Shown here: positions 6,369 to 16,777 of the stretch, one piece after another
Layout: each line of letters opens with the position of its first letter
Position numbering within the stretch: position 1 is the stretch's first letter
DNA from: a phage
Strand: one strand, 5' to 3'
Sequence record: PZ445446.1
Length of the DNA stretch: 64,000 nt
Made by a program: the position numbers and the translations under genes
Notes under the pieces: generated by a model
Told to the model about the DNA's origin: nothing
Seen by the model: the letters and a program-made list of their open reading frames with translations, nothing else
The model's database searches: none

Positions 6369-6558
6369 GCTTAAATCTGCATGGAACATCGCTGTGGGGG
6401 ATGAGATCCGCATCCCAGGTGGAAAGACCATTATGAAGATATCACGTATCGAGTATGAAGGTGATCGTGTATTTCATATCTTTGCAGAAGATGGTCGAGA
6501 AATTTATATACAGGCAGGCTCTCACATCTATATCAGTAAGAAAGGGGACGACAAATGA
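6355..6558 (+). CDS. hypothetical small protein
   Basis: 67 aa ORF overlapping upstream gene end with aggag SD. Confidence 0.4.
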   Translation: MQMFKLKSAWNIAVGDEIRIPGGKTIMKISRIEYEGDRVFHIFAEDGREIYIQAGSHIYISKKGDDK

Positions 6559-6887
6559 CAGAGATCATCGTTTCAACTGCAGGGTATGTATTCCTGACAA
6601 TCATTGCGTTGGCTATTCTGGTGGCGGTGTATGGATTTGTTATCCTGCCTATTCTTGAGACATTTAGCTTGTGTCGGTGTTGGAGAAAAGCTTACGGACC
6701 ACAACCGTGGAAAGACTGGTTTCATTTGGTGCGTATAGCGTTCTCTTATGCCTATGATCACTCCAGCAGTGCATGCGTAACCGGGTACCATGCCTACAAC
6801 TGGAACTGGGAAGGGCTTGGGAGATGGACTGTTACAAAAACTATACCCTTACGGTTGTATAAAGGAAAGAACACACTGGGAGCCTGA
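6555..6887 (+). CDS. putative membrane protein
   Basis: 110 aa; ATGA overlap with upstream gene; N-terminal hydrophobic segments. Confidence 0.4.
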   Translation: MTEIIVSTAGYVFLTIIALAILVAVYGFVILPILETFSLCRCWRKAYGPQPWKDWFHLVRIAFSYAYDHSSSACVTGYHAYNWNWEGLGRWTVTKTIPLRLYKGKNTLGA

Positions 6888-6889
6888 TA

Positions 6890-7900
6890 TTTTAAGTTAT
6901 CAGATTGCCAGAGATCAGGAGGATTTCTAAAATGGATTTCCTCCTTTTGATATTTTACCTACCAGGATATTTTAAAATCCTTAGAAAATCAGAAAATGGA
7001 TCGAAAACTAAAATGGATTTTTCAGAGCAGGCACGACGAGATGAACCACTCATCCTATCGTCTGCACCATATTCCAGACCACCATTACAGATTTCCCGCA
7101 CATGCTCACACCCTTCTACTAGAACTTCCCCCACTTACCCTTGACCTTTTATAGTAATAATCCAACCACTACCTTGAAGTTGTGGCGCAGCTTTCCAAGT
7201 ACTCGATCTGTTTTTCGTTTCAAAGATTGAATTTTCTGAAAATTTTTCTCGATAAATTTCTCAGTACTCGATCTGTTTTTCGTTTTCTGAATCGGATTTT
7301 CTGGAAATCGTTCCGGCTCTCGACCTGAAATTTTTGGGGACGAAATCGATTTTTCGTTTTCAGAAATGGATTTTTAAAATTTCTATATGGGAATATTTTA
7401 GTGGATACTATTTTATAGGAAATTGTTACGGAGGATAATTAGCGTGCTAATTAAATTTATTAAATGCGAGGAGTTCTCATTTAGAATTTTGAATGATAAT
7501 CATTCTCGTTTGCAGAATAACGGGCAGGCCCGGTGATTGTCTCCCGGCCCCTACTGCCCCGGCTTGTTATTATAGTAACACACAGGACAAAGAAAGCAAG
7601 AAGTTTTTGCATAAATTTTTAGACGATAATGATAATCGTTCTCATTTCATGCAGCGCCCATCCCCGGTGGTTGTCTCCCCCGTCACCGGTGCCTGCCGTC
7701 CTTTCGATAGGTATATTTTGCCACCTGGCGGGGCCGCTGTCAACACTTTTCAAAAAAAAAAAAAATTCTAACCTGATGCGCTGACCGCTGCAACCTGGCG
7801 GGGCCAGCCTGGCAGGGCCTAACTGACCAGGTAGGAGAGAATGAAGGCTTGCAAACCTGGTGGGCCTATGCTATAGGATAGGTAACAATTGAAGAGGAGG
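6890..7900. repeat. non-coding repeat-rich region
   Basis: Two direct copies of gtactcgatctgtttttcgttt (~7200 and ~7264), several aaatggattt / gattttc units, paired gataatc(a/g)ttctc and gtg(a/g)ttgtctccc copies, and an A14 homopolymer at ~7752-7765. Confidence 0.6.
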
Positions 7901-7907
7901 TACAAAA

Positions 7908-8045
7908 ATGGAAGGTAATATGATCCCCCTGGTTGAAAAGGCTATGGCGGGAGCGTTGGAACATAAAGAAGAGTACGAAAAAATGATGGTTAACCTGGCA
8001 GGGGCGGCGGCTGGAGAATTCTACCCAAAAAATAATTTTAACTAA
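7908..8045 (+). CDS. hypothetical micro-protein
   Basis: 45 aa ORF not in track; strong SD agaggagg 6 nt upstream of ATG. Confidence 0.35.
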   Translation: MEGNMIPLVEKAMAGALEHKEEYEKMMVNLAGAAAGEFYPKNNFN

Positions 8046-8130
8046 TGGTTGACAGCTCGGACAGTTCTTGTTATTCTTATCCTCACAAGGTGAACAACAC
8101 CACACCAATTAACAGAGAGGATAAAAAATC

Positions 8131-8328
8131 ATGAACGCCTACGGAATTAAAGTACGTCGCAACACTCGCCAGGTGGTCACCAATCAAGTGATTTGCCGGG
8201 TGGATGTAACCATCAACAACGGGCAAGGCCTTTATAAATTTCGTCGCGGTCATAGCTATACCCTGCAACAGCTTAACCGTTGCGCCCTGACAAAAGGTCA
8301 GATCAACCACTGGTTTAATAAAAAATAA
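8131..8328 (+). CDS. hypothetical small protein
   Basis: 65 aa ORF; TTGACA promoter-like sequence at ~8048 and agagaggataaaaaatc SD. Confidence 0.45.
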   Translation: MNAYGIKVRRNTRQVVTNQVICRVDVTINNGQGLYKFRRGHSYTLQQLNRCALTKGQINHWFNKK

Positions 8329-14599: not shown

Positions 14600-14884
14600 A
14601 TGGCTATTGTCACCGTTGGCGATGTAGTGGAAATGGAAGCAAAATACTTAAAAGCGGGTATGCATATCCTACGGAATGATCAAGAATTGTTATTAACGAT
14701 GGTAGACTATAATCCCGGCCAGGATTATCCAAGCATCGACTACTTTTTTGAGTATGTTGATGAAGAATTGAAAGAGGATGAGGCTTATCAGGGTGAATTC
14801 TGCAATTTCTTTTGCCCTGATGAGGTTGTAAAAGTTATCTATCAACCTGGAGTACCTTTCCCGCTGCACGCTATCAATAAATAA
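14600..14884 (+). CDS. hypothetical protein
   Basis: 94 aa ORF; TTGCAT/TAATAG promoter-like, GC hairpin ggggggcggccccc, ataggag SD. Confidence 0.45.
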   Translation: MAIVTVGDVVEMEAKYLKAGMHILRNDQELLLTMVDYNPGQDYPSIDYFFEYVDEELKEDEAYQGEFCNFFCPDEVVKVIYQPGVPFPLHAINK

Positions 14885-14938
14885 ACCTGGTGGGGCCGAA
14901 AAGGCCCCAATTATGAAAATAAAGAGAGGTAAATCATC

Positions 14939-16565: not shown

Positions 16566-16582
16566 TCCTTATAAACTACAAA

Positions 16583-16610
16583 ACAGGGCTTGCAATGGTC
16601 CTGTTTTTTG
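16583..16610 (+). terminator. rho-independent terminator
   Basis: Hairpin acaggg-cttgcaatggt-cctgt followed by tttttg. Confidence 0.5.
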
Positions 16611-16777
16611 TTATACTTGTTTCACGGCAGGCACCTGGCGACGGGGGGAGACAATCACCGGGTGTGCCTGCTATATAAAAATTATAAAAACCGTTGACAT
16701 CTGCCAGGTGGTGGGGTAGCATTTATCTCGAAGGGGGCAAAAGCGCCCACACAACAACCGGAAGAGAGGAAAACGCC

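Follow-up and report, generated by a model that had tools for sequence, protein, structure and literature searches.

A conserved non-coding zone of rV5-like phages carries predicted Fur operators and may form an iron-responsive control region and replication origin

Overview

The DNA analysed here is a window of 64,000 nucleotides (64 kb) from sequence record PZ445446.1 that belongs to a Vequintavirus, i.e., an rV5-like virulent myovirus of Escherichia coli. Over positions 6500-8300, it shares 99.6% identity with phage MaxBurger, and 112 phage records each cover 80% or more of these positions. Between early genes on the plus strand lies a non-coding zone (6888-7907; Table 1) in which we recognized two palindromes matching the operator of the host's ferric uptake regulator (Fur), set at fixed distances among candidate promoters, long direct repeats, and A/T tracts. 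The best reading of the whole, to which we give roughly even odds (about 0.5), is that of a Fur-gated transcriptional hub that would probably also serve as a transcription-activated replication origin. It starts from properties computed directly, namely the zone's non-coding status, its conservation, its geometry, and the quality of its Fur-box matches.

An earlier note made from the same letters had described this interval as a gene-free repeat zone and possible regulatory hub, which agrees with what we find: The zone has no convincing gene, is densely repeated, and lies inside a promoter-rich early block of the plus strand. The 22-mers, paired GATAATC copies, and run of 14 A residues listed there are all present where they had been placed; that the paired copies are Fur-box matches and that the arrangement is conserved across genera had both been missed. 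The rV5 genome paper draws a "non-coding" box without open reading frames (ORFs) and assigns no function to it. In an alignment of 13 Vequintavirus genomes, mean pairwise identity across 7321-7746 is 0.94-0.99, compared to 0.81 for the 3' end of the upstream gene and 0.86 for the downstream ORF; the elements of the zone are thus more constrained than the neighbouring genes. Other parts of the zone are much more variable, including the spacer at 7025-7190 (0.74), the A/T tract (0.71), and 7814-7862 (0.35). Searches with blastn against E. coli chromosomes and plasmids detected no homology to the zone. That it acts in cis as a non-coding control region seems close to certain.

Paired palindromes match the Fur operator

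The sequence GATAATC[AG]TTCTC, pointed out in the earlier note as a pair, occurs exactly twice, at 7495 and 7631, with both copies in the zone. Each copy is part of a palindrome that matches the Fur operator, referred to here as box 1 and box 2. We took the eleven published iron boxes of Gram-negative bacteria compiled in PMC10665472 as training set for a Fur matrix and scored the window with it. Box 2 is the top match on either strand of the 64 kb with 23.3 bits, as compared to a maximum of 16.2 bits among 20 shuffled sequences, and both sites score above most of the sites on which the matrix was trained. Against the 7-1-7 form of the box, TGATAATNATTATCA, each has two mismatches. Among 19 Vequintavirus genomes surveyed for box spacing and A-run length, the two boxes are always exactly 136 bp apart, and box 1 is kept in all except HMD6 (18/19), which has CATT in place of CGTT at the 3' end.

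The core of box 1 also occurs at operators of host genes. Scanning one genome per bacterial species, we found its 16-mer ATAATCATTCTCGTTT in front of iron-related genes. In Escherichia whittamii and Pantoea dispersa, the ORF that begins 50-55 nt further downstream scores as ferrichrome porin FhuA (NF007465, 1469 and 1250 bits), and a similar-looking ORF of 735 aa follows the 16-mer in Ca. Pantoea alvi; in Enterobacter hormaechei, the distance to mntH (NF001923) is 61 nt. Both fhuA and mntH are classical Fur-repressed targets. We consider it likely that Fur binds the predicted boxes of the phage. As a side observation, ATAATCATTCTCGTTTGCA(A/G)G, which has 20 nt in common with the region of phage box 1, is intergenic and conserved in several Pseudomonas species (loci L055, L056, L066, L068, and L089) and presumably represents the Fur box of an iron-regulated locus there.

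For a view beyond Vequintavirus, we compared phages of the genera Seunavirus (PVP-SE1, GAP31, 4MG), Certrevirus (CB7, F4M1E, PBES02), Mydovirus (Mydo, KpS11), Henunavirus (Hena1), and Phapecoctavirus (anhysbys). Sensitive blastn aligned only ca. 7447-7600 of the zone to these distant relatives, in which the corresponding sequence is mostly unannotated. The genera examined carry one to four Fur-box palindromes in a 29-bp phasing, with a perfect TGATAATCATTATCA in 4MG and AATGAGAATCATT(C/c)TCAT in PVP-SE1, Hena1, and PBES02; the AATGAGAATCATTCTCATT of PVP-SE1 and Hena1 agrees at every position with the Fur-box consensus that had been obtained in Xanthomonas for receptor genes under Fur regulation. 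Across six phage genera, whose hosts comprise Escherichia, Salmonella, Cronobacter, Klebsiella/Proteus, Pectobacterium, and Erwinia, the boxes are kept and the spacers have diverged, which points to a conserved factor of the host rather than to a co-evolving protein of the phage. Their surroundings are kept as well: In each genus compared, GATATT motifs cluster at -606 to -525 relative to the last Fur box, and an element that we call X stands beside that box. Vequintavirus phages have two tandem modules of box, X, and promoter, 136 bp apart, and the other genera have one such module together with a GC-rich block of 85 nt that is discussed below. A pattern scan of IMG/VR for the motif of box plus promoter returned 22 loci, of which three are relevant (Hena1, PVP-SE1, and one Vequintavirus) and the rest are chance matches. 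A third X copy (exact 15-mer CCGGTGATTGTCTCC; 16624-16676, minus strand) lies outside the zone without a Fur box, between a plus-strand terminator (16580-16607) and a plus-strand promoter (16694-16722), and unlike the two copies of the zone forms a strong hairpin (CAGGCAC..GTGCCTG, z = -4.1 and -3.1).

Palindromic, phased operators beside convergent promoters are typical of phage repressor switches. The palindromes could thus bind a phage-encoded dimeric regulator or another host factor, in which case the zone would be a purely transcriptional switch or insulator without any role in replication. Its density of promoter-like sites and the failure to find an initiator gene or DnaA box would suit such a switch. 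We nevertheless regard it as unlikely, since the sites beat most training sites of the Fur matrix and equal bona fide host operators, the Fur consensus is retained across genera with diverged non-coding sequence, and no gene for a DNA-binding protein is conserved beside the region in all genera.

Somewhat less probable again is a decoy function, with boxes amplified on hundreds of phage genomes titrating Fur and de-repressing host iron uptake, e.g., for the benefit of iron-dependent ribonucleotide reductases of the phage. In the Fur titration assay, a single box carried by a multicopy plasmid can be enough to de-repress a reporter under Fur control, and all genera carry two to four strong boxes per genome, with box 1 identical to a host operator core. 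For mere titration, however, the fixed 29-bp phasing and the fixed position of the boxes among promoters, X, and repeats would be needless; Fur is abundant, and within a short lytic cycle titration would take effect late.

Candidate promoters face each other across the boxes

The first 20 kb of the window form a plus-strand block in which 20 of 23 promoter-like sites with at least 10/12 matches lie on the plus strand. PL2, the strongest promoter-like site of the zone, is one of the three on the minus strand. Read on the plus strand, its spacer gives the ACCTGGCGGGGCC motif, and equivalents on the minus strand are found in the other genera at +262 to +275 from the last box, within a range of +251 to +275 for the layout as a whole. 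A second leftward candidate, PL1, has equivalents there at +107 to +110 that reach 9-10/12 (TTGCAA-17-TATATT, TTGATC-16-TATTAT), so that both are conserved in position in all genera. Neither of the predicted promoters PL1 and PL2 has a gene downstream, and transcripts from them would cross X and the Fur boxes before reaching the repeats and the A/T tracts. The opposing rightward candidates P1 and PR2 are weak matches that each overlap a box, with box 1 in the spacer of P1 and box 2 over the -10 element of PR2. A further leftward candidate directly left of the boxes (PL0) was discarded, as it is seen in Seunavirus and Mydovirus only and not in Vequintavirus. The genome papers of rV5 and CB7 describe only sigma70-like early promoters.

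Promoter-like sites on both strands without a downstream ORF would also be expected if the functional product were a small or structured RNA, be it a Fur-controlled RNA similar to RyhB or a leftward antisense RNA. One candidate is the 85-nt block (ACCGGCGATCCACCTTCCGACC..GTTAGCCCCGCCTTTTCGCCGTGGGGTGGCG), which lies between the two leftward promoters and is almost invariant in Seunavirus, Certrevirus, Mydovirus, Henunavirus, and Phapecoctavirus (L005:2154-2243 in PVP-SE1, with equivalents in L004, L006, L007, and L029-L034); it contains one covarying GC/AU pair and may be a leftward non-coding RNA. An nhmmer search of the window found no copy of this block, which is missing from Vequintavirus, its structures predicted with alifold have little covariation, and no intrinsic terminators follow the candidate start sites. 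The Rfam models gave nothing above chance in the PVP-SE1 zone and only one chance-level hit in the zone of the window (E = 0.44; 22 bits, the gathering score being 126). The two X copies of the zone fold no better than shuffled sequences (z -0.3 to -1.4) and have no consensus structure across genera. Altogether, an RNA product is an improbable explanation of the zone.

Long direct repeats and the question of an origin

The origin-like character that had been suggested for this interval is borne out by three long direct repeats, A/T tracts, and low duplex stability. The 22-mer GTACTCGATCTGTTTTTCGTTT, previously reported in two direct copies, indeed occurs at 7199 and 7264 and nowhere else in the 64 kb. 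These copies belong to a family of three repeats with matches at 7189-7235, 7254-7300, and 7328-7374, spaced 65 and 74 bp from start to start, and each composed of a core (A/T)CTCGA(T/C)C, TTTTTCGTTTT, a short inverted repeat, and an A/T tract (AAAATTTTT, AAATTTTT). Within the genus, the repeats are 0.90-0.96 identical. Three CTCGATC repeats, each closing with a AAAAAATTTTT-type tract, lie at around -290, -215, and -150 from the last box in Vequintavirus, Seunavirus, Certrevirus, and Mydovirus; the zone thus has the three or more regularly spaced direct repeats of iteron-type origins, and the copies hold conserved positions in four genera. A search with AATGATAATCATTCTC, allowing up to three mismatches, gave seven matches, with 1.3 expected by chance.

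Positions 7206-7505 are the fourth least stable 300-bp window of the 64 kb (top 0.08%), and the repeat zone overall ranks as third to fourth least stable duplex segment (top 0.1-0.3% of windows). It also lies in the largest conserved gene-free interval. We put an origin of replication in the zone at somewhat less than even odds. According to the rV5 paper, these phages encode a family A polymerase and a primase-helicase of the gp4 type, as parts of a replisome like that of T7. GC skew was of no use as a guide to the origin because it rises monotonically with the direction of transcription, a pattern that was also noted in the rV5 paper. Equally unstable duplex segments at ca. 18.2-20.0 kb, 29.2 kb, 50.8 kb, and 58.9 kb are alternative places for an origin, and the stretch at 18-20 kb contains a cluster of minus-strand promoter-like sites where the direction of transcription possibly changes.

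A model of iron-responsive early control

To these computed properties, our model of the zone adds inferred Fur binding, promoter firing, and origin function. A terminator-like hairpin would close the upstream early genes and be followed by the GATATT cluster, three iteron-like repeats with A/T tracts, and phased Fur-matching operators. Beyond these, putative sigma70-type promoters would point leftward, against the flow of the neighbouring genes, and face weaker rightward candidates that are covered by a Fur box. Fur with bound Fe2+ might then decide how much non-coding transcription crosses the repeat and A/T region rightward and how much leftward. Leftward transcription into this region would most likely activate or prime an origin, as it does at origins that consist of a promoter and an unwinding element, and early control or the initiation of replication would in this way become responsive to iron.

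Several observations weigh against this model. No initiator gene was recognized beside the repeats, where the flanking proteins match only PHROGs of unknown function and no Pfam family, and the ca. 275-aa upstream gene and the small minus-strand gene of the other genera have no homologue in the window. DnaA boxes (TTWTNCACA) are missing from 6890-7900, with seven in the window as by chance, and GATC sites relevant to Dam and SeqA are not clearly enriched in the window, as compared to two- to fourfold in the other genera. The repeat units of 65-74 bp are far longer than classical iterons, and other segments of the window are equally AT-rich. Phapecoctavirus and Henunavirus keep the boxes, the GATATT cluster, and the promoters and yet have no CTCGATC repeats; in anhysbys, different repeats were seen by eye at the same position. 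Regarding the promoters, PL1 is only an 8/12 match in Vequintavirus, and P1, likewise 8/12, is weak evidence because its -11 A is lost in three genomes (Mydo, KpS11, and CB7). Fur boxes downstream of a promoter are also an unusual arrangement. Finally, phage phiWec189 is without 7736-7930 (ca. 195 bp), so that the -35 hexamer of PL2, the A-run, and the CCTGG repeats contained therein must be dispensable.

The record of phiWec189 opens inside the zone, and repeats together with bent DNA are typical of pac sites, which might suggest a packaging site or genome terminus instead. We give this very little credence: The usual location of pac sites is within or next to the small terminase gene, the zone sits among early genes, other records open elsewhere, and the genome of rV5 was reported to be circularly permuted. 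The two ends of the phiWec189 record (LC739538.1) repeat ca. 148 nt, from Fur box 1 to Fur box 2, and this overlap indicates an untrimmed assembly join rather than a terminus.

Coding status of the zone

The earlier note had found no convincing ORF in the zone and had named a conserved coding gene in related phages as the finding that would speak against its view. Both ORFs listed at the time fail coding tests, and no conserved gene emerged from the relatives, where gene annotations across the zone conflict, the frames are inconsistent, and the DNA elements outlive the ORF. The frame from ATG 6932, nested in ORF 6905-7144, stops after 7-99 aa and in differing frames among the 13 relatives. ORF 7493-7771 is open in all 13 aligned genomes (91-132 aa), which follows from the near-invariance of the DNA; it starts within the Fur-box palindrome without a ribosome-binding site (RBS), and 1-nt indels in Ph206 and ev147 change its last 30 aa. 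Its variable sites are spread over the codon positions as 7/6/11 without a significant excess at the third, as compared to 6/8/20 in the genuine upstream gene, and a hand count from the alignment of the window with I29 gave six non-synonymous and two synonymous changes. The other genera keep the DNA elements and have no such ORF.

The view that small proteins are genuinely encoded here, for which many relatives carry annotations, can therefore be dismissed almost entirely, even though ORF 7493-7771 matches phrog_14993 (E = 8e-63) and ORF 6932-7144 has an AGGAGG 9 nt upstream: The former match is repeated annotation and not independent evidence, and frameshifts, codon positions, and the broken frames of the relatives all speak against coding. 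Dozens of genomes thus probably carry annotations of several "hypothetical proteins", among them one PHROG family, that do not correspond to genes.

The non-coding zone may even reach to around 8048. ORF 7908-8045 is frameshifted after 10-13 codons in 6 of the 13 genomes and its codon positions lack periodicity (6/8/7), so it may not be a functional gene. Its start is lost in phiWec189, and compared to all 12 relatives the window has a 39-nt in-frame deletion between CCCCTGG repeats. Among the database records, 16-17 GenBank entries of the MG0656xx series that are named "Campylobacter phage" (C12, C7, C9, D1, A140, and others) are 93-98% identical across the zone. At least one of them is flagged UNVERIFIED, and C12, the one examined, is classified as Vequintavirus at NCBI; the host labels of these records are probably wrong.

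The A-run and other features of the zone

The run of 14 A residues, for which the earlier note had considered slippage or an assembly artefact, is the only homopolymer of at least nine A/T or at least eight G/C residues in the window. Its length varies from A5T6 to A14T2 in the 19 genomes, with A6T5 as a common form that resembles the A6T5-6 tracts closing each repeat in the other genera. Even genomes that are at least 99% identical differ (14, 13, 11, 9, 9, and 9 residues, with A13 in the closest relative), in line with a slippage-prone site, and this is a genuine hypervariable tract that most likely changes by slippage. A pure assembly artefact is unlikely given that this position also reads A9-A13 in independent assemblies; of all versions, that of the window is the longest, and its exact count may carry some read-level error. 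Judging from the geometry, we infer that the A-run could be an UP element of PL2, and it may represent a phase-variable (contingency) homopolymer.

At the other end of the zone, the hairpin at 6917-6949 is probably the intrinsic terminator of the upstream early transcription unit. A compensatory double change in slur16 (GGAGAA/TTCTCC) preserves it, and a simple terminator scan missed it because its loop is longer than 8 nt; the 5' arm is at the same time the apparent Shine-Dalgarno sequence of the spurious ORF 6932. The surrounding block 6888-7024, which holds the first two AAATGGATTT copies, is nearly invariant (pairwise identity 0.87; 70% invariant columns). These copies correspond to the "aaatggattt" part of units reported previously, which is confirmed with three copies; the "gattttc" part is weak, with one copy each on the plus (7295) and minus (6990) strands.

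Motifs of the AACCTGGCGGGGCC type have nine matches, with 2.2 expected, and five of them lie between about 7722 and 8005-8008 (motif (A)CCTGGCGGGGCC). The segment 7815-7862 between the CCTGG repeats is absent in 5 of the 13 relatives (PMBT16, I29, slur16, FV3, and JEP1) and partly in HMD6, which explains the low identity across 7814-7862; the breakpoints lie in the repeats themselves. The only other good copy of ACCTGGTGGGGCC in the window forms the 5' arm of a hairpin at a gene end (14884-14912; TGGGGCC-gaaaa-GGCCCCA), and the motif is thus also used in terminator-like stems.

Table 1. Features of the non-coding zone and its borders, in window coordinates. Identity is mean pairwise identity in the Vequintavirus alignment; promoters and Fur boxes are predictions.
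Feature	Position	Strand	Remarks
GATATTT repeats	6886, 6949, 6966 (span 6886-6972)	+	First copy overlaps stop codon of upstream gene 6555-6887
Hairpin AGGAGGA..TCCTCCT with T-rich (TTT) tail	6917-6949	+	-14.7 kcal/mol, z = -2.8; right after stop of gene 6555-6887
AAATGGATTT units	6930, 7011, 7364	+	Only three copies in 64 kb, all in the zone
Variable spacer	7025-7190		Least constrained; identity 0.74; 1-2 nt indels; variable sites by codon position 22/23/25, no coding signal
Three iteron-like direct repeats, 65-74 bp	7189-7253, 7254-7327, 7328-7385	+	Repeat search of window; include both GTACTCGATCTGTTTTTCGTTT copies
Inverted repeat TAATTAGC-gt-GCTAATTA	7436-7453		Sequence reading; weak fold, z = -0.6
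Degenerate Fur-like box 0, AATGCGAGGAGTTCTCATT	7463-7481		14/19 against AATGAGAATCATTCTCATT; 29 bp upstream of box 1
Fur box 1, TTGAATGATAATCATTCTCGTT	7489-7510		18.2 bits, second best of 64 kb; 12/14 specified positions of 7-1-7 consensus
Candidate P1, TTGAAT-N18-CAGAAT	7489-7518	+	8/12; Fur box 1 in spacer; present in 10/13 genomes scanned
X element copy 1, GGGCAGGCCCGGTGATTGTCTCCCGG	7522-7547		Core GGCA-N5-CGGTGwTTGTCTC beside last Fur box in all genera
Candidate PL1, TTGCTT-N16-TACTAT with TG	7599 to 7572	-	Sequence reading; 8/12, below scan thresholds
Candidate PR2, TTGCAT-N18-GATAAT	7607-7636	+	Sequence reading; 8/12, unflagged by scan; -10 inside Fur box 2
Fur box 2, GATAATGATAATCGTTCTCATT	7625-7646		7625-7643 (GATAATGATAATCGTTCTC) 17/19 against E. 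coli consensus GATAATGATAATCATTATC; 0.00 expected in shuffles
X element copy 2, CCCCGGTGGTTGTCTCCCCCG	7662-7682		Exact 15-mer match; identity 0.96
Candidate PL2, TTGACA-N17-CAAAAT with TG	7743 to 7715	-	10/12; strongest promoter-like site in zone; identity 0.99
A14 (T14 on minus strand)	7752-7765	+	9-22 nt upstream of PL2 -35 hexamer, ca. -44 to -57
Tandem (A)CCTGG(C/T)(G/A)GGGCC repeats	7792, 7806, 7854 (span 7792-7870)	+	Flank indel-polymorphic segment 7815-7862
Candidate rightward promoter TTGCAA-N17-TATAGG	7849-7877	+	Sequence reading; precedes RBS GAGGAGG and ATG 7908; -35 lost in deletion variants

Comparison with known systems

Phages like rV5 and their relatives are widely employed for biocontrol and therapy, with E. 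coli O157, Salmonella, Klebsiella, Cronobacter, and Pectobacterium as targets. Since animal infection sites are iron-limited, an iron-gated switch, if real, would bear on their efficacy in vivo as compared to rich medium. Beyond that, the zone provides a precise candidate for the replication origin of the whole subfamily.

Among known origins, those of the iteron type (lambda ori, P1 oriR, and iteron plasmids) share regular direct repeats beside an easily melted A/T segment with the zone, though their units measure ca. 19-22 bp instead of 65-74 bp and the zone has no identified cognate initiator or DnaA boxes. Transcription-activated origins such as the primary origin of T7, oriF and oriG of T4, or that of ColE1 have in common with it a promoter, predicted in the case of the zone, that reads into an A/T unwinding region with no gene downstream. 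The promoters of the zone differ from these in being of the host sigma70 type, as predicted from their sequence, with Fur boxes between promoter and repeats. The pR/pL switch of phage 186 and the Pe/Pc switch of P2 also consist of convergent promoters of which one carries an operator, an arrangement that is predicted for the zone at a distance of a few tens of bp. The regulator of the zone would, in contrast, be a metal sensor of the host, its rightward candidates are weak matches, and unlike 186 and P2 these phages are virulent and have no decision between lysis and lysogeny to make.

With the Fur operators of Enterobacterales (fhuA, mntH, and iucA), the phage sites share the palindromic consensus, the presence of several adjacent boxes, and, in the case of weak candidate promoters, the overlap with a -10 element or spacer. 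They differ in lying in a virulent genome beside repeats, with a 29-bp phasing and no iron gene downstream, and in that some boxes are located downstream of the better leftward promoters. The stx1 promoter of a temperate phage is iron-regulated, and Fur boxes are also known from the sit operon on lambdoid prophages (PMC6969025). In these cases, phage DNA is wired into the host's Fur regulon, as is proposed for the zone, though the boxes of temperate phages control prophage cargo or virulence and the predicted ones of rV5-like phages lie in the core control region of lytic phages throughout the subfamily.

Our search of the full-text literature turned up no publication in which Fur is connected to Vequintavirinae, Phapecoctavirus, PVP-SE1, or phi92 and none on Fur boxes in the control regions of lytic phages. 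As a tentative proposal, Vequintavirinae and Phapecoctavirus may have built Fur operators into their central control region beside a probable origin, where iron would gate early transcription or replication or where the boxes would titrate Fur. Fur operators as such and phage-borne Fur boxes on prophage cargo are thus familiar, and what would be new is the combination of a predicted Fur operator with the core control and possible origin region of lytic phages.

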